From assembly GCA_050179755.1 (NCBI GenBank), contig JBFXEV010000001.1, positions 1,353,994 to 1,417,993 on the forward strand: a DNA stretch of 64,000 nucleotides, read 5' to 3'. Position 1 is the first letter of the stretch; each line of letters begins with the position of its first letter. The DNA is from Candidatus Babeliales bacterium (GTDB lineage: Bacteria; Babelota; Babeliae; Babelales; JBFXEV01). The position numbers and the translations under genes were made by a program. Shown piece after piece: positions 37,501 through 45,429 of this stretch. The notes under the pieces are model-generated. The model worked only from the letters and a program-made list of their open reading frames with translations, was not told the DNA's origin and ran no database searches.

Positions 37501-40194
37501 TTATGCCTGGCCCCTTACGTATGGCTGTTCAGGTTCAGGGCGAGGCTCCATGCCAAGCAGCTCATAGACTTCTTGAGCAGACATGGTCTCTTTTTCCATC
37601 AGAGCAGCAGCAATTTTTTCAAGTTTATCCCGATGCTCGGCCAAGAGAGTCATTGCCCTCTTTAATGAGCCCTCTAAAATAGCCTGCACTTCCTCATCAA
37701 TTAATGAACGCGTGCGTTCTGAATAATCATGCGGATTTGCCCGAGGATTATAGATAACCGGCCCAAGCTTTTCAGACATGCCCCATTGGCATACCATTGC
37801 TCGCGCCATAGAAGTGGCCGACGTAAAATCACTTTCTGCTCCTGCACCCAACGTATTACAAGCCAAGTGCTCGGCAGCTCTGCCACCCATGCACATTGCA
37901 ATATAGGCAAGGCACATTTCTTTGCTGCGTGTATATTTTTCACGATCAGGCAAGTGAAACGTCACCCCTAACGCAGGCCCACGAGGAACAATAGTTACTT
38001 TATAAAGCGGGTCAATATGCTCATGAGGCATTAAGAGCCCTACCAACGCGTGCCCTGCCTCATGATAAGCGGTAAGCCATAATTCTTGTTTAGTTGGAAA
38101 TACACTTTTTGATTCTTGCCCAATAATAATCTTATCACGTGCTTCATCAAGATCTGCCATAGTCACTGCCGCTCGTTCTTCTTTTTTAGTGGCGATCATG
38201 GCAGCTTCATTAACGAGCCCTGCCAAATGAGCGCCAGTCCACCCTGCAGTACCGCGGGCAACTTTTGAAAGATCTGCATCTTCACCCATTTTGATTTTAG
38301 CAGCATGAATGTTTAAAATTTGCTCACGGCTTTTTAAATCTGGGTATGGCACGTGAATCGTTTTATCAAATCTACCAGGGCGCACGAGTGCCTTATCAAG
38401 CATATCCGCTCTGTTGGTTGCAGCAATAATAATTACATCGCTATCTTTTGTAGAAAATCCATCCATTTCTGTAAGCAACTGATTTAACGTTTGCTCTTGC
38501 TCTTGTGAGCCATACGGCCCATGCGAGCGAGCCCGGCCAATCGTATCAATTTCATCAATAAATACAATAGATGGCGCATGCTTGCGGGCTTGTGCAAAAA
38601 GATCACGCACGCGCGCTGCTCCCACACCCACAAACACTTCCACAAATTCAGAGCCACTCACTGCAAAGAATGGTCTTCCCGCCTCGCCAGCCACTGCTTT
38701 TGCAAGCAAGGTTTTACCATTTCCTGGCTCACCTTCTAGCAAGATTCCGCGGTTCATATGAGCGCCAAGACGTTTAAATTTTTGAGGCTCTTTCAAGAAA
38801 GAAACAAAATCTTGAAGTTCTTCTTTGGCTTCATGAGCGCCCGCCACATCGGCAAATTTAACTTTTACCATAGAAGGCATAATCATTTTTACATGACTCT
38901 TGGTCATGCCCGCAGCACTTTCACCGCCACCACCAGACTCTTCATTGCCTTTAGTGCTCGTTACTTGTTTGACTGCTTTATCAAAATCACCTTTGGTAAC
39001 AATATCGCGGCCCGATTCACGCGATGCAATGATAGCTGCTTGATTGACTAAGTTGGCCAAATCAGAGCCGGTAAAGCCTGCTGTATCTTTGGCAACTTGT
39101 GCAAGATCAATAGCTGAATCTAATTTTACTTTGCTTGCATGAAGACGCAAAATTGTTTCTCTATCTTTCTCTTCTGGATACGGCACAACTATGTGACGGT
39201 CAAAGCGGCCCCGGCGCACCAGCGCCTTATCAAGAACTTCTGGGCGATTGGTTGCTGCTATAATAATAATATTTTGTTGTTTGCTTGAAAAACCGTCCAT
39301 TTCTGCAAGAAGCTGATTGAGTGTTTGCTCACGCTCATCGTTTCCGCCACCAATACCGCCACCACGATGTCGGCCAATTGCATCAATTTCATCAATAAAA
39401 ATTATGCAAGGCGCATGTTTGCGTGCCTGCGCAAAAAGATCACGCACGCGCGCTGCACCCACACCCACAAATACTTCTATAAAATCTGAGCCGCTCACGC
39501 TAAAAAATGGGCAATTTGCCTCCCCTGCCACTGCTTTTGCAAGCAACGTTTTACCATTACCCGGGTCACCAACAAGCAATATGCCGCTCGTCATTTGCGC
39601 GCCTAAACGGCGATATTTTTCTGGATTTCTTAAAAAATCTACAAAGTCCTTCAGGGCTTCTTTGGCAGTATCTGCTCCCGCAACATCTGCAAACGTGGTT
39701 TTAATAGTAGAAGGCATAAACATACGAGCGCGGTTTTTACCCATGCCAAAAATATTAGCACCACCGCCGCCGCCATTCTGGCCTTTCATCTGACGGAAAA
39801 AATACCATGCTGCAAGTAATGATAACAAAAACGCGCCAAATAAAAAGAAATGCCAGGTTTGAAAGCCCGAAGGCTCTACAATATGCACGTACACATCATG
39901 CGCAATGAGCTGGTCCATAATCGTTGAATTTTCAGGGATATTAGTCTCAAACTTTTGAGTGCCTTGCTTATAAACCCCATGAATACTCTTACCCGAAACT
40001 GTAACCGCCTTTACCTTATCCTGGTTAACTGCACTGACAAATTCTGAATATGAGATAACAGTAGTGTTAAGAATAATATGGCCAAGCTGCGATAATATAA
40101 TAAGAGATCCCACGAGCAGCACTACCATAACCACCAGATTGCGAGGACCGCCATTAAAGCCTTTAGGGTTCAAATTGGAAAACTTCTTTTTCAT
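37501..40194 (-). CDS. ftsH: ATP-dependent zinc metalloprotease FtsH with two tandem AAA+ modules
   Basis: Two TM helices, two Walker A ([16 protein letters not shown]), two Walker B (FIDEID), two SRH motifs, M41 HEAGH. Confidence 0.95.
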
Positions 40195-40395
40195 TCATAT
40201 CCTATTTGTTAAGTTCGTATAAAAATAGCTGGATCAAGCAGAGAGAATACCTCCGTAAGCCCTACTCTCTGCCAGTATAGCATAAAAAGATATATTCTAA
40301 TAGGACAATAGCCATAAGAAATCACTCAAGCCGCTAGAAAGGAAGCTTTTAATATAATTACAAGTGTTGAGCAAAGCCCTCACTGTTTTCCAGGA

Positions 40396-40911
40396 CTAAG
40401 CTGTCACCTTAGAATTCGCCTGCGACTTTTCAACTATATCCAAAAACCAAATATCATGTGCTTCTTCAGCAAAAGTGTTCTCATAGTTTTTAAGAAAAGC
40501 ATAAAACGCTTGCGTTTTCTCTTTTGAAGGAGAAGGCGTATCAATTTCTGGATTATGATGCATAAAATGACCAGCATATGTAGTACCAAATTGAGCATAT
40601 TCTTTGGTAAATAATATGAATGAATGCCAAAGATTATCTACATCACGGCTATACATACCAATGTTCTCTTTGTTTTTATTAAGTGCACAAAGTATAAGAT
40701 AGCGCTTGAGTTCTCGTTCTAAAATAACAATATCTTCATCACTATAACCAAAATCTTTTTGGCATCGTTTGGTCATATGCTCCATGGGATAATTCATTAT
40801 GCCAGTTATTATCTGCTCTTTACTTGGTTTGGAAAGGTAAGCCTTTAAGTACGTAAAGCACATTACGAGCAAAGTTGAAAATACAATAAGCGTCAAATTT
40901 TTTATATTCAT
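40396..40911 (-). CDS. DUF1399/GRDP (TIGR04222-domain)-like protein with signal peptide
   Basis: ELKRYLIL...SRDVDNLWHSFILFTKEYAQF...GHFMHHNP family motif (recalled). Confidence 0.7.
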   Translation of the reverse strand: MNIKNLTLIVFSTLLVMCFTYLKAYLSKPSKEQIITGIMNYPMEHMTKRCQKDFGYSDEDIVILERELKRYLILCALNKNKENIGMYSRDVDNLWHSFILFTKEYAQFGTTYAGHFMHHNPEIDTPSPSKEKTQAFYAFLKNYENTFAEEAHDIWFLDIVEKSQANSKVTA

Positions 40912-40936
40912 GTTAATTTGTATCTTTACATAGCAA

Positions 40937-40964
40937 AAGAGCTGCAGATAATACTACAGCTCTT
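40937..40964 (-). terminator. Stem-loop between peptide gene and DUF1399-like gene
   Basis: Minus strand AAGAGCTGTAG-TATTAT-CTGCAGCTCTT, 11-bp stem followed by a short T-run. Confidence 0.65.
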
Positions 40965-40995
40965 AGTAAATTAATTCGTTGTAAAAGGCAAAAGT

Positions 40996-41214
40996 TTAAT
41001 CTCCGCCACCGCAACCATTACAACCTTCAAGATCACAAACAGGCACAACATTAATAGGATGGCTACCAGAAACATCAGATGCATGATCAGCTTTAATATT
41101 CTGTTTTATGTTTGCTATAGCAGAATTTGCTTGCGCAATTCTGTTTTTTACAGAACATTCCACTTGTGTAGCAATTGCACAAATTATGAGAGCAGCAAAA
41201 AATTTATTGTTCAT
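40996..41214 (-). CDS. Small secreted peptide with Cys/Gly-rich C-terminus
   Basis: 72 aa; AAGGGA RBS; signal peptide; ends PVCDLEGCNGCGGGD. Confidence 0.7.
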   Translation of the reverse strand: MNNKFFAALIICAIATQVECSVKNRIAQANSAIANIKQNIKADHASDVSGSHPINVVPVCDLEGCNGCGGGD

Positions 41215-41484
41215 GTGTGGTTTCCCTTTAGTTGATTGTTAATGTCCCTTACATAATTACTATAGCACATATATTACTTAAGTAACTATATTCAACATCT
41301 CATTCAACGTTAATTAACATCTTATTAATAAACTTACCTAGCGCCCTAGGGCCTTATAATATTAATAATGATTATAATTTCAACAGGATTAAATAGTAAC
41401 AAATTGAAATATTTTGTATTTTCAATTATGATATCATTAACATTTATTAACACTTCTAAAGGAATCTCAAAGATTGGAGCAAAG

Positions 41485-41919
41485 TTGAGCAAACATAATC
41501 AAAATAACAAAGCACTCTTACATTTTAGAGAGCCACTTATTCTCTCAAACCTTATTCTGGCAATGAAAGAATCGTTGCCAGAACTAGAAGCCGCTTTTAA
41601 CGAATATCAAGATGATTTACTGCAAACTGGCGAATATGATCAAGGTTATTTTTCCTATATTTTTAATCCATATTTACAGGAGTTTTTACAATCCAAACAA
41701 AAACACCCTAACCAACTGGGTAAGCGAATATTCCATTATTTAGAAAGAATGGCACGCAGCCCTGAGTGGACGGTAGTTAATGTTTTGGCTGTGGTGATAC
41801 TTGAGCATCTTAGTCCTCACCAATTGGAAGTTGCACGCCAGTATATGGGGCCAAAGACCAAGGAAATTCTAAAAGATATACAACAATATTGGAGAGATCT
41901 TCATGCAGCGCAAAAGTAA
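41485..41919 (+). CDS. Immunity-like helical protein (DUF7674-like), paralog of 48748-49161
   Basis: PELE...F.PYL..FL...HPN.LGKR.F.YLE.M...ILE.L...QLE.A..YMG.KTKEILK; start uncertain (TTG 41485 after GGAG; ORF open from 41368). Confidence 0.65.
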   Translation: MSKHNQNNKALLHFREPLILSNLILAMKESLPELEAAFNEYQDDLLQTGEYDQGYFSYIFNPYLQEFLQSKQKHPNQLGKRIFHYLERMARSPEWTVVNVLAVVILEHLSPHQLEVARQYMGPKTKEILKDIQQYWRDLHAAQK

Positions 41920-42451
41920 AAAAGAACTGATAGTGCATAGTAACCAAGCAAGAAAGTTATCACTTCTATTATTGCCCTTTTTTGGCTGGCTCGCGTTTGA
42001 TATATTTTCCTATATTTCTGATTGGTCAGTGCTTAACGCTCTTGCCGGCGCGCGTTATATTAAATGGGTGCTTACGTTCGCATTGCTAATATTTCTAGTA
42101 CGTTTGACCGTCATTTTTTGTAGGCTTTTTTGGCGTTATGTAACGAGGGCTCCTGCTGTTGTTCTTAACGATGAAGGTTTATGTCTGGAAAATTTTGGTC
42201 TTATTCCTTGGGAGAACGTGGAGCATCTTGAAAAATGGATTAGTAATCCTTTAAATATACCGGGTGAAGAACTTGTGGGCCTTGCAATCAGCTTTAAGAA
42301 TCCTGAGTTGGTGTTTAATAAAGGTTGGTTACATCAAAAAATAATATATATGTTAAAAACGCATAATTCTTTATATCATGTGCTCGTGCAACATCTTGAT
42401 CGTGATCCTCAGGAAGTTGCCCAGTTTGCCAAGCATTTTATACAAAAGTAA
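41903..42451 (+). CDS. Membrane protein, STM3941-like (2 TM plus PH-like domain)
   Basis: Two TM helices then PAVVLNDEGL...GLIPWENV. Confidence 0.6.
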   Translation: MQRKSKKELIVHSNQARKLSLLLLPFFGWLAFDIFSYISDWSVLNALAGARYIKWVLTFALLIFLVRLTVIFCRLFWRYVTRAPAVVLNDEGLCLENFGLIPWENVEHLEKWISNPLNIPGEELVGLAISFKNPELVFNKGWLHQKIIYMLKTHNSLYHVLVQHLDRDPQEVAQFAKHFIQK

Positions 42452-42459
42452 ACATAATC

Positions 42460-43047
42460 ATGAAAACCTTGTTACCATTACACAAAGCTTCTAAGCAAAA
42501 TAAAATTGAAAAAGTAAAAGCTTTGCTTGAGCAAGGAGCTGATGTACATGCAAAGGATGTGCATGGAAGAACCGCGCTCCATATTGCAGCTCTTGATGGG
42601 CACCTTGAGGTAGTGAAGCTGTTACTTGCACATGGAGCTACCGTATCAACAAAAGATACTGCTGATAAATTTACGGCGTTAGAACTTGGAGCATGTTATG
42701 GCCATACGCCCGTTGTTATTGCGCTCATTAATCATGGTGCGGATGTGAATACTCTAAGCAAAGATCGCGTGAGTGCGTTACATTTGGCATGTGGCCAAGG
42801 GCATCATGATACAGTTAAAGTATTGTTATCTCATGGTGCTAACATACAAGCAAAAAATAGTCTGGGCAGTACGCCGCTCCATTATGCAGCAGTTACCGGT
42901 CACCTAGCAGTAGTTGAGTTGTTACTTGCGCAGGGGGCTGATGTGCATGCAAAAGGGATGTATGGCGAGACTGCAAAAAATATGGCATTACAAGCTGGTT
43001 ATACAGAAATTGCACATATACTTGAACAGTATGCAACCAATACGTAA
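42460..43047 (+). CDS. Ankyrin repeat protein
   Basis: Repeated G.TALH.AA..GH..VV.LLL..GADV units. Confidence 0.92.
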   Translation: MKTLLPLHKASKQNKIEKVKALLEQGADVHAKDVHGRTALHIAALDGHLEVVKLLLAHGATVSTKDTADKFTALELGACYGHTPVVIALINHGADVNTLSKDRVSALHLACGQGHHDTVKVLLSHGANIQAKNSLGSTPLHYAAVTGHLAVVELLLAQGADVHAKGMYGETAKNMALQAGYTEIAHILEQYATNT

Positions 43048-43170
43048 TGGATTTAAGTCCCCTTTGGCCAAGGACCAATTTTGTAAACAAGGGGTAATAA
43101 TGGTATGCTTTATGTTAATAGTAGTGGCTATATTATATCTATAAAATTTTACTAATAGTAAATAAACGAC

Positions 43171-43650
43171 GTGAATCAAGTGCAACAAACTTTTGCTGAA
43201 ATAAGCAAAAATCTAATTGGGCAAAAAGTCAGCGCTATTAAATTAGGCGTTGGCAGTTTTTTAACTCTTGATTTTGGCCAGTTGCATACAAAACTTACAA
43301 AAACCAAAACAGGAAAAGAACTGATTCATACGTTTGGGGAATGGCATCTGTGGGTATATATGTGTGCTTGGCGAATTGATAAAAATGGAAAGCCATATAT
43401 TGCTTCATCTGATGATCGCACAAAAATTGCTCAAATAATAAAAGAACTTTTTGACACTGTTCTTACAAAATGGGAATTGTTAAATCCTTCATTGGATACT
43501 AAATGGTATTTTGATGATCATATAACGCTCACGTTATTTAATACCAGCACTGAAGATGAAGATCAATGGTTGTTATTTACGCCTGAAGACATGGTATTAA
43601 CCATTGGTCCCGGTGATACGTGGACGTACCAGCCTTCTGGTGCCAATTAA
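43171..43650 (+). CDS. Hypothetical immunity-like protein
   Basis: 159 aa; GSFLTLDFG...GEWHLWVYMCAWRI...QWLLFTP motif recalled from genes next to polymorphic toxins. Confidence 0.6.
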   Translation: MNQVQQTFAEISKNLIGQKVSAIKLGVGSFLTLDFGQLHTKLTKTKTGKELIHTFGEWHLWVYMCAWRIDKNGKPYIASSDDRTKIAQIIKELFDTVLTKWELLNPSLDTKWYFDDHITLTLFNTSTEDEDQWLLFTPEDMVLTIGPGDTWTYQPSGAN

Positions 43651-43675
43651 ATTTACTTACATTGCAGGAATATGA

Positions 43676-44437
43676 ATGCAAACTTTTTCAAAAGAATCAT
43701 TAGTAGATGCTGTACTGCATAATGATGTATCACGAGCAACAGCTCTGCTTGCACAAGGCATTGATGTAAATGATAAAAATGTGCATGGCTGGACGGCGTT
43801 ACATCTTGCTGCACAATGTGGGCAAAAAGAGCTTGTGGAATTGTTGCTCAGCCATGGTGCTCAAATTCAAAATAAAGGTACTTGTGATATTACGCCACTC
43901 CATTTGGCGTCACTTACCGGGCAATCTGAAGTTGTTATGGTGTTGCTAGCGCATGATGCGTGGGTGGATGCTCAAGATCAAATTGGTAGAACACCGCTCC
44001 ATATGGCAGCACAGGGTGGAAATGTTGATGTTGTTGCATTTTTGCTTGCACGTGATGCAAACATGTACCTTAAAGAAAATATGCAAGGCCATACTCCTTT
44101 AAAAGTCGCACAAGCTCATGGCAATCAAGCGGTAGTCGATTTGTTTCTTGAACAGCAAGCATTCCAAATAAATGATGCTGCTTATGAAGATAACAAAGAA
44201 CAGGTCGCTTATTTGCTATCACAAGGTGTTTCTATTAACGCAAAAACTGATGATGCAAGGCCGTTGCTGCGTGCTGCATTTGAAGGTCACAAGGAAATGG
44301 TAGAATTGCTGCTTGCACATGGGGCTGATGTTCAAATAACAGATCAAGATGGTAATACAGCTGCCATGCTTGCGCAAGAAGAAGGCCATACAGAAATTGT
44401 GCAGTTACTTGAGCAGCACGGAAAAAATAAAATTTAA
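43676..44437 (+). CDS. Ankyrin repeat protein
   Basis: Multiple ANK repeats in two blocks. Confidence 0.92.
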   Translation: MQTFSKESLVDAVLHNDVSRATALLAQGIDVNDKNVHGWTALHLAAQCGQKELVELLLSHGAQIQNKGTCDITPLHLASLTGQSEVVMVLLAHDAWVDAQDQIGRTPLHMAAQGGNVDVVAFLLARDANMYLKENMQGHTPLKVAQAHGNQAVVDLFLEQQAFQINDAAYEDNKEQVAYLLSQGVSINAKTDDARPLLRAAFEGHKEMVELLLAHGADVQITDQDGNTAAMLAQEEGHTEIVQLLEQHGKNKI

Positions 44438-44451
44438 TTTAGGGGCGATAA

Positions 44452-45429
44452 ATGCAAAATTTTTCTATTGAAGCATGGATTGATGCAGTATCAAAGAATA
44501 ATATTCCACAAGTAAAAACATTGCTTGCACAAGGTATTGACCTTAATAGTAAAGATACCCATGGTACGGCATTACATTATGCAGCCAATTATGATTATCA
44601 AGAACTGGTTGAATTATTAATTGCGAGTGGCGCTGATATACATGCAAAAAATAAACAAAACTGGACTCCATTACATACTGCCTCGCAATATGGATCTCTA
44701 AAAAGTGCCCACATATTAATAGCACATGGTGCAGATGTACATGCAAAAGATTTAGATAATTATAGTCCATTACATTATGCAGCCGCGGAAAATTTTGGAA
44801 ACATAGCTGAATTATTAATAATGAGTGGTGCTGTAGTGGACGCAAGGACTGAATATAATTGGACTGCATTACACCTTGCAATTCAGAATGGCTTAGAAAA
44901 AATTGTAGCATTATTAATAGCGAGCGGCGCTCAAGTGAATGATGTTATAGATAAGCAGACGCCATTACAGAAGGCTTCTCTTTATGGTTATGAAAAAATA
45001 GTGCAACTATTACTAGAGCATGGTGCTGACGTGAATGCAAAAAATGATGATGGCTGGACTGTGTTAATGCTGGCTTGCCTCTCCGGGCATAAAAAAGTTG
45101 TAGAATTACTCATAGCTTTTGCTGCAGATGTTAATGCCAAAAGTATAGACAATTGGACTGCATTACATGTTGTTTCACAAAATGGACACGGAGCGGTAGC
45201 TGAATTGCTTATAGCTGGTGCTGCAGATGTTAATATAGTCAGTGGTGCTGGCACTGCTTTGCACTTGGCAGCATTTGAAGGATACAAAGAAATAGTCGCA
45301 TTACTGCTCTCACATGGGGCTGATATAACACTACTCGATAGAGATAACAAGACAGCTGCCATGATTGCGCAAGAAGAAGGCCATACAGAAATTCTGAAAC
45401 TATTAAATCAGTATGTAAAGAACGACTAG
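44452..45429 (+). CDS. Ankyrin repeat protein
   Basis: About 9 ANK repeats. Confidence 0.92.
   Translation: MQNFSIEAWIDAVSKNNIPQVKTLLAQGIDLNSKDTHGTALHYAANYDYQELVELLIASGADIHAKNKQNWTPLHTASQYGSLKSAHILIAHGADVHAKDLDNYSPLHYAAAENFGNIAELLIMSGAVVDARTEYNWTALHLAIQNGLEKIVALLIASGAQVNDVIDKQTPLQKASLYGYEKIVQLLLEHGADVNAKNDDGWTVLMLACLSGHKKVVELLIAFAADVNAKSIDNWTALHVVSQNGHGAVAELLIAGAADVNIVSGAGTALHLAAFEGYKEIVALLLSHGADITLLDRDNKTAAMIAQEEGHTEILKLLNQYVKND

Follow-up and report, generated by a model that had tools for sequence, protein, structure and literature searches.

Within a 64,000-nucleotide stretch of the genome of a Candidatus Babeliales bacterium (GenBank assembly GCA_050179755.1, contig JBFXEV010000001.1, positions 1,353,994 to 1,417,993; hereafter, the window), we analyzed a locus of two co-oriented open reading frames (ORFs) on the minus strand, lying 84 nt apart. 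The upstream ORF encodes a 72-aa peptide with a cysteine-rich tail, the downstream ORF encodes a 171-aa protein with a conserved histidine motif, and a stem-loop is located between them (Table 1). An earlier note on this DNA, made from its letters alone, had described both genes, the motif and an 11-bp hairpin as a candidate peptide-modification system, and the ORF list and the sequence confirmed each of these elements at its position. Peptide gene, hairpin and histidine-motif protein gene constitute a self-contained two-gene module. Sequence comparison indicates that related bacteria associated with amoebae have the same two-gene unit, and that in other microbes both parts belong to one fused protein.

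The 72-aa peptide consists of a hydrophobic N-terminus, followed by SVKNRIAQANSAIANIKQNIK and by the C-terminal segment VVPVCDLEGCNGCGGGD, which carries Cys60, Cys65 and Cys68; the tail is acidic. Alignment of 21 related peptides revealed a signal peptide, a conserved helix and a variable Cys-rich end in the family, and together with the ORF it bears out the signal peptide, helical spacer and Cys/Gly C-terminus that had been noticed before. The helix (consensus SLxEKLAxxxxKIxxxKxxIxSG, starting with S/T-[LVI]-x-E-K-L) is the only conserved part of the mature peptides, and Ile33 within it is invariant. Immediately before this start, 20 of the 21 peptides have A, G or C, each preceded by a hydrophobic stretch, and most have a small or aliphatic residue at -3. 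Signal peptidase I recognizes small residues at these two positions (-1 and -3), and because the family fits this pattern we read the N-terminus as a Sec-type signal peptide and predict export of the 72-aa peptide by Sec. Peptide-family tails contain 2–7 Cys, mainly with CxxC or CxxxC spacing, and many relatives combine a signal peptide with a Lys/Arg-rich CxxC tail. As in precursors of ribosomally synthesized and post-translationally modified peptides (RiPPs), a conserved recognition part (here the post-signal helix) is joined to a variable core (the hypervariable Cys-rich end).

When the profile of this peptide family was compared with the whole 1.525-Mb genome, the gene described here was the only match below E = 0.01 (E = 1.9e-18). 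The next match, at E = 0.02, is a 152-residue open frame outside the window in the same genome (G000, C1:494704-495159, plus strand). The peptide family is matched by eleven database proteins, none of which has a name or a Pfam label. Pfam and NCBIfam scans of the 72-aa peptide returned nothing useful, and a match to Ocular_alb (E = 0.045) was rejected as chance level.

The 171-aa protein contains the segments ELKRYL...VDNLWHSFILFTKEYAQF...GHFMHHNP, so that the E.KRYL...WH...HH.P motif is present as first reported. The protein opens with a 21-residue hydrophobic stretch, and its homologues have equivalent hydrophobic N-termini. In the AlphaFold2 model, residues 3–26 form one long helix; because of this helix, and because the small -3/-1 cleavage pattern is missing, we read the N-terminus as a probable membrane anchor. 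The signal peptide previously assigned to this protein thus stands as a hydrophobic N-terminus but not as a cleavable one, and the anchored domain would probably face the periplasm. The public gene call of the protein begins at Met46 (126 aa) and is devoid of the anchor and of residues 27–45. We prefer the 171-aa reading because homologues of 160–190 aa keep both residues 27–45 and the hydrophobic N-terminus.

Homology searches returned 82 homologues at E ≤ 0.01 among 96 candidates; like the profile match of the peptide, this marks the ORF as more than a chance one. In an alignment of 122 family members, the invariant residues include W95, H118 and H119, and at least 90% of the members keep E67, D92, H96, F98, T102, Y105, F108, P121, Y143, F147 and W155. 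AlphaFold2, supplied with 122 sequences, predicted an all-alpha structure both for the full 171-aa protein (pLDDT 94.3, pTM 0.85) and with high scores for the domain alone (pLDDT 94.1, pTM 0.89). Since Asp92 and His96 are placed one helical turn apart in the model, with His118-His119 in the next loop, it is reasonable to suppose that these Asp/His residues form a metal site. Foldseek found no match in the PDB at E ≤ 0.001, either for the full model or for the domain alone. In a VIA-align comparison with 48,161 chains, the best Z was 4.2 for the full model (rmsd 4.7, 93 aligned) and 4.5 for the domain alone (rmsd 3.4, 88 aligned; photocobilin protein 8j2y_B), both well below the usual best value for helical models. 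A phycobiliprotein or globin-like fold, which appeared in several rows of this comparison, was rejected at Z values of only 3.2–3.7, which are far too low, and we assign no fold to the protein. The best match in a profile search of PDB sequences (E = 0.035) was taken as chance.

The stem-loop between the two genes, one of whose pairs is G-U, is followed by UUGCUAUG. The 96-nt intergenic RNA folds with -19.5 kcal/mol (z = -2.8), and 0 of 200 shuffled sequences were as stable. A consensus terminator scan made no call on the stem-loop because its U-run is short, with only four U within or after the stem. Hairpins were then compared over the 14 loci in which a peptide gene directly precedes a complete domain gene, using the best 40-nt window of each spacer: this window reached -13 kcal/mol or lower in 8 of the 14, and z ≤ -3 against shuffles in 9. 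Among 120 sampled co-oriented spacers of 40–120 nt in the window's genome, 15.8% reach -13 kcal/mol; this background depends on crude gene calls made from the ORFs of a single genome. For the loci with spacers in this size range (8 of 12) the enrichment has a binomial P = 1e-4, which applies to loci that are kin and not independent. The hairpin pointed out in the earlier note is therefore a recurrent one; its sequence differs between loci and only its presence is conserved. It may serve as an attenuator or as an mRNA stabiliser.

To place the module among its relatives, we compared 30 loci from species genomes and 79 from metagenomes, the closest of which are recorded as Candidatus Babeliales or Dependentiae. 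Loci of the window's own type (Type A) encode a full-length, tail-less domain with a hydrophobic N-terminus, and there are 23 distinct ones (the window and 22 others, L005 and L038 being counted once). A profile built from 13 peptides of 10 loci located a peptide homologue no more than 450 bp away from the domain gene at 20 of the 23 loci, 10 of which had played no part in building the profile. No other match occurred in 507,107 bases of the 110 loci. Small Cys/Gly peptides beside tail-less homologues, a prediction attached to the first description of the locus, are thus found by profile at most loci of exported tail-less members. Four Type A loci have two peptide genes (L003, L007, L010 and L037), one has a truncated peptide copy (L036), one has a weak peptide match (L041, E = 0.004), and in L009 the peptide is fused in frame to the N-terminus of the domain. 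The Type A peptides showed no match to the domain profile, so they represent a distinct family, which has a conserved helix of its own, rather than a broken-off part of the domain.

In most of the wider family, the Cys-rich segment is part of the same polypeptide. Among 142 new representatives (P0083–P0224), the HHxP pattern was found in 133, and 80 of these distant representatives have at least two Cys in the last 30 residues, in agreement with the statement in the earlier note that such proteins often bear a Cys/Gly tail. The 79 fused tails that could be delimited contain 2–13 Cys (median 4), with a composition of 26% C, 15% G and 11% S, and the median distance from the final IW motif of the domain to the first Cys is 11 residues. 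CxxC (102) and CxxxC (72) dominate the spacings, which are the same in cis, in fused tails, as in trans, in the peptides. Fused forms of 295–578 aa were also seen, with GT4, methyltransferase, GNAT and FAD-oxidase_C domains; a family alignment search of 5813 candidates of 425–2000 aa returned no longer fused relatives. In one representative (P0207), a C-terminal NHLP-clan / 'Frankia peptide' RiPP-precursor domain (Pfam E = 4.6e-12, NCBIfam E = 5.3e-14) replaces the Cys tail.

A sister group of 11 distinct loci (Type B) has an intermediate arrangement. Here, the domain stops right after HHxP (profile positions about 15–120 of 185), and positions about 120–175, including the YExxFGExPxxIW helix, are found together with a Cys tail in a small ORF next to it, whose product has a signal-like N-terminus of its own. 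The small ORF matched the profile in 10 of the 11 loci (E = 5e-9 to 3e-3) and was recognized by eye in the eleventh (L061). Judged from these alignments, Type B is a true gene fission, in which the last helix and the Cys tail have become a separate secreted mini-protein. Both halves bear export signals, so that the domain and the piece with the tail must come together again outside the cytoplasm. The proposal that the tail of the window's protein was split off as a separate gene is therefore right in that the Cys-rich part is supplied in trans, but it is not a simple split-off tail; the true split is that of the sister group. That the domain and the Cys-rich segment work together is supported by three independent lines of evidence, namely fusion, fission and conserved adjacency, and we consider the peptide and the 171-aa protein very probably to be functionally coupled.

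Two loci showed unusual arrangements of family genes. One 3.9-kb contig carries four tandem exported paralogues (L012:225-2517), two with the full His motif and a Cys tail and two that have lost both the D-x2-WH/HHxP motif and the tail; this joint loss represents one event at most. L046 (3468-3629), a Type A-like locus in which the usual peptide is missing, has a 53-aa ORF that runs across the domain gene's stop codon; this ORF has a lipoprotein-like start (…LMPAC) and three further Cys.

All 82 homologues, including the Met46 database copy of this protein, carry the precomputed label PF27765.1, and the nearest ESM-Atlas clusters are 78–100% PF27765, which is named 'UCP032817-like' in Pfam 38.1. 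Based on these labels of its homologues, the 171-aa protein probably belongs to the uncharacterised family PF27765. The family spans bacteria and archaea, with 2929 cluster representatives (50% identity) at E ≤ 0.001, 266 at E ≤ 1e-10 and 12 at E ≤ 1e-30. Our local Pfam and NCBIfam scans of both proteins returned nothing at E ≤ 1 for the 171-aa protein.

The earlier note had named the protein as DUF1399/GRDP-like or TIGR04222, and hidden Markov model searches with both gave no match. For PF07173 (GRDP-like/DUF1399; cut-off 22.7 bits), there was no match to the 171-aa protein at E ≤ 1, none in the whole genome at E ≤ 10 and none in five genomes with family members, the last two being weak searches in which the control genomes were also blank. 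It was also not found in 151 genomes of one phylum, and by direct scan it touches only 2 of the 122 family members (best E = 0.17). TIGR04222 (cut-off 43 bits) likewise did not match the protein at E ≤ 1; its sole match in the genome at E ≤ 10 lies elsewhere (E = 7), and five genomes with family members gave only weak matches below the cut-off (E ≥ 0.011). Two of these weak matches, checked in one genome (L113 and L117), do not contain the family gene of that genome (L030). Nevertheless, some bacterial Atlas clusters carry both PF27765 and GRDP-like labels (65% and 10% of members), and the Atlas model can be aligned over 110 residues with a plant GRDP cluster (TM 0.67, by query). In addition, the D-x2-W-H ... 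H-H-x-P style motif of PF27765 presumably resembles that of GRDP-like proteins. There may be a remote tie between PF27765 and GRDP-like proteins, and the families first named were the wrong ones but pointed at the right neighbourhood.

The two families can also be compared in their C-termini. According to an excerpt of PMC4299439, plant GRDP2 orthologues have the C-terminal consensus [CG]GGGCGG[GC], and so share a Cys/Gly-rich C-terminus with PF27765 members. In contrast to the 171-aa protein, plant GRDP1 and GRDP2 are long, cytosolic, multi-domain proteins studied by phenotype only. TIGR04222 proteins embody the same idea, with a conserved N-terminal membrane-associated domain and a low-complexity, Cys-rich periplasmic C-terminus, in the description given by an excerpt of PMC12452194. 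They differ in having several transmembrane segments and in the lack of a profile match to the 171-aa protein, and subsets of them are linked to MNIO genes, which the window's genome does not have. Our literature searches found no paper on UCP032817, PF27765 or PIRSF032817 and none on a glycine-rich domain-containing protein with RiPP; two papers listed for Dependentiae together with cysteine-rich signal-peptide proteins were, judged by their listing, irrelevant.

No third conserved partner gene travels with the module. Among 18 Type A loci, the sole neighbour cluster present in at least three loci occurs in four, at differing positions. The neighbours of other members, mostly fused and outside Babeliales, are heterogeneous: 146 of 152 selected ORFs were scanned, and GT4 glycosyltransferases (3 loci), methyltransferases (5), GNATs (3) and metallo-beta-lactamase-fold proteins (3) recur, a LanC-like protein, a DsbA-like protein and an ArsR regulator are single cases, and MNIO is not among them. 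The LanC-like (lanthionine synthetase C-like) gene (E = 2e-37) lies two genes downstream of a tail-less family member (L050:2786-5622). The maturases that define RiPP classes, i.e., MNIO (PF05114), YcaO (PF02624) and radical SAM-SPASM (PF13186), had no match in the window's genome (one contig, 96% complete), in which searches the controls matched. DsbA (PF01323), the one thiol-oxidase family searched for, had no match there at E ≤ 0.01 either, again with matching controls. The distribution of the module is patchy; it occurs in 22 of 261 genomes of the phylum (15 of 189 of good quality) and in 10 of 21 families. The window's own family is represented by G000 alone, and a genome of the same genus does not have the module.

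In the mechanism that we infer for the module, Sec would export the peptide and its signal peptide would be removed, after which the peptide helix would dock on the membrane-anchored, outward-facing domain. His118-His119, with His96, Asp92 and Glu67, would form a metal-dependent site acting on the thiols of Cys60, Cys65 and Cys68, most likely by oxidative chemistry yielding a cross-link or heterocycle, and the outcome would be a secreted peptide, derived from Cys, that binds metal or has a redox function. Because of the hairpin that follows the peptide gene, peptide mRNA would be able to exceed that of its partner. Taken as a whole, from export and docking to metal-site catalysis on the tail Cys and hairpin-set peptide excess, we give this proposal slightly less than an even chance. 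The conservation described above gives the pair a catalytic look, in that the three invariant residues and the nearly invariant Glu67, Asp92 and His96 are paired with a peptide that has a conserved helix and a hypervariable Cys core, and the 171-aa protein is the only candidate for a co-encoded core-modifying enzyme; the fold searches recognised no catalytic fold in it. The pairing was also modelled with the domain (residues 30–171) and the mature peptide (residues 21–72), each with its own alignment. The predicted complex scored 0.38 compared with 0.01 for the best of three controls, at least 55% of contacts agreed between runs, and the partner pLDDT was at least 54. Of 157 solved complexes, 116 reach the pass mark of this test, as do 2 of 215 mismatched pairs; with scores of 0.60 or less, only 18 of the 157 reach it, together with both passing mismatches.

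Several points weigh against this mechanism. The score of the predicted complex is only a weak pass, and combined with the strong genomic prior it nudges the odds of the pairing up a little. With no solved relative of the fold, no chemistry can be borrowed from a known structure. Since most fused members have no signal peptide and are expected in the cytoplasm, a periplasmic setting cannot be needed for the chemistry. The 2–13 Cys of the tails fit a substrate and a metal-sponge tail equally. Three of the 23 Type A loci (L006, L039 and L046) have no peptide, and in L006 about 3.9 kb of flank was available on each side. As to the hairpin, whose background is crude, it may be no more than the terminator of a small gene with a transcript of its own. 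Furthermore, our heuristic filter for ORFs with a signal and a Cys tail is unspecific, as 405 of 9244 small ORFs pass it genome-wide (about 0.45 expected per 1.7 kb), and therefore only the profile-based counts are trusted. The looseness of this filter and the three loci without peptide are also what can be said for the two genes being unrelated neighbours, with the tail likeness of the small ORF a low-complexity coincidence. This explanation is close to refuted by the adjacency found by profile in 20 of 23 loci, with nothing else in 507 kb of loci nor in the genome below E = 0.01, and by the natural fusion in L009 and the split forms; we regard it as very improbable.

The alternative that we take most seriously, while judging it clearly below even odds, is metal handling without covalent change, in which the His site and the Cys tail or peptide would bind a soft metal (Cu, Zn, Cd or Fe). 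The pair would then be a periplasmic metallochaperone or buffer for bacteria living inside amoebae, and in the fused cytoplasmic forms a single chain would have this role. The conserved His/Asp of PF27765 and the CxxC/CxxxC-rich tails with their widely variable Cys number are consistent with it; the metallochaperones UreE, HypB and SlyD have variable metal-binding tails, which the PF27765 tails seem to resemble. Near some fused members there are an ArsR-type regulator (L023), metallo-beta-lactamase-fold proteins and TehB/TPMT-type methyltransferases, and since DsbA has no match in the genome, exported thiols might stay reduced. An excerpt of PMC12452194 presents bufferins as Sec-exported Cys peptides that protect against copper. 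However, a leader-like helix joined to a hypervariable core, and the presence of several peptide genes in a locus, would rather be expected of enzyme substrates. The hints from neighbouring genes rest on single loci, and no metal-binding fold was recognised.

Two other explanations give the 171-aa protein another role. The domain could be a docking or leader-like scaffold, with the Cys tail modified by an enzyme encoded elsewhere. A precedent is found in an excerpt of PMC12452194, where the Cys-rich C-termini of TIGR04222 proteins are proposed as MNIO substrates and the N-terminal part possibly aids biogenesis. The fusion of P0207 to an NHLP-type precursor domain and the LanC-like gene near the tail-less member of L050 point the same way. 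We think it improbable, since the window's genome has no match to MNIO, YcaO or SPASM, no third gene is conserved near the module or near the fused forms, and an invariant His-His with conserved Asp/His is unexpected in a mere scaffold. Slightly less probable still is a secreted cationic antimicrobial or host-directed peptide, with the membrane protein as its immunity or export helper. The Lys/Arg-rich CxxC tails and signal peptides of many relatives and the loci with two peptide genes would fit it, and the patchy presence of the module, down to a same-genus genome without it, is typical of accessory competition genes. Yet a toxin-immunity pair explains neither the tails fused to the domain in most of the family, mostly without signal peptides, nor the split domain, and the window's own tail is acidic and not cationic.

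Among described systems, the preferred reading of an exported peptide and its modifying partner can be compared with bufferin-type RiPPs, which, as far as an excerpt of PMC12452194 goes, share the small Sec-signal Cys precursor and a minimal gene set without dedicated protease or transporter, and for which the same excerpt proposes a role in copper stress, including inside amoebae. Their partners are MNIO/DUF692 and DUF2063, to which the window's partner is unrelated, and the precursor family is different. NHLP and Nif11 long-leader RiPP precursors have a protein-sized conserved N-terminal part and a short variable Cys-rich core. In this they are like PF27765, one of whose members (P0207) is fused to an NHLP-clan domain. 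Their leaders are non-catalytic and come with known maturases and transporters, in contrast to the PF27765 domain with its invariant His and no conserved maturase nearby.

The wider proposition, that the UCP032817-like/GRDP-like domain is a metal-dependent enzyme of new fold which modifies Cys-rich peptides in cis, by fission or in trans, is a possibility that we rather doubt. If true, it would define a very large undescribed class of ribosomal peptide products or peptide-derived cofactors, from archaea and bacteria to plant GRDP, and the Sec-exported two-gene form of Babeliales would be the simplest system for finding the chemistry. The family is large and perhaps remotely tied to plant GRDPs, which affect growth and stress tolerance. 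A concrete hypothesis, testable across the whole family, is that a Cys-rich segment always accompanies the domain, be it fused, split or in trans. With two genes, no other conserved partner and the general Sec pathway, the module offers a convenient entry point, and either a new peptide-modifying enzyme or a metal-handling pair would bear on metal and redox stress in intracellular bacteria of amoebae.

Table 1. Features of the two-gene module, with positions counted from the first letter of the window.
Feature	Position	Strand	Basis
Peptide gene, 72-aa predicted secreted, Cys-tailed (precursor-like)	40996..41214	-	ORF and peptide-family profile match, E = 1.9e-18
Predicted signal peptide, residues 1-20, probable cut after Cys20	41155..41214	-	Alignment of 21 peptides
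Conserved amphipathic 'leader-like' helix, residues 21-43 (SVKNRIAQANSAIANIKQNIKAD)	41086..41154	-	Alignment of 21 peptides
Cys/Gly-rich tail, residues 56-72, with Cys60, Cys65 and Cys68	40999..41049	-	Sequence
Intergenic stem-loop, 11 pairs, 6-nt loop, short U-run	40937..40964	-	RNA folding; recurs in related loci
171-aa UCP032817-like (PF27765) histidine-motif protein gene	40396..40911	-	Homologues and AlphaFold2 model
N-terminal hydrophobic helix, residues 3-26, probable membrane anchor	40834..40905	-	Model and homologue N-termini
Conserved core, residues 65-121 (Glu67, Asp92, Trp95, His96, His118, His119, Pro121)	40549..40719	-	122-member alignment
Candidate promoter, TTAACG-17-TATAGT, upstream of peptide gene	41285..41313	-	Consensus match, 9/12 positions

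The evidence for the candidate promoter of the peptide gene is weak, as a consensus scan of the region gave 10 sites compared with 6.4 expected. Downstream of the protein gene (40215-40400), the overall fold of the RNA is not unusual (z = +0.64). The stretch is contained in three DNA sequencing runs of one study, with no RNA run listed.

Two genes diverge from the peptide gene on the plus strand (41368-42451), encoding a DUF7674 protein (E = 2.8e-13) and a 182-aa membrane protein with a sub-threshold match to the STM3941 family (25.3 bits compared with a 40-bit cut-off); neither is kept beside the module in other loci. They are followed on the same strand by a run of at least three ankyrin-repeat-like proteins of 195, 253 and 325 aa (42460-45429), in whose translations units of the form '...G.T.LH.AA..GH..VV.LLL..GA' are seen. 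On the other side, the minus strand encodes an 897-aa FtsH-like protein with tandem AAA modules (37501-40194). The usual FtsH has one AAA module, and this protein contains two GxPGNGKT Walker A and two DEID Walker B motifs, followed by one HEAGHA zinc-protease motif.

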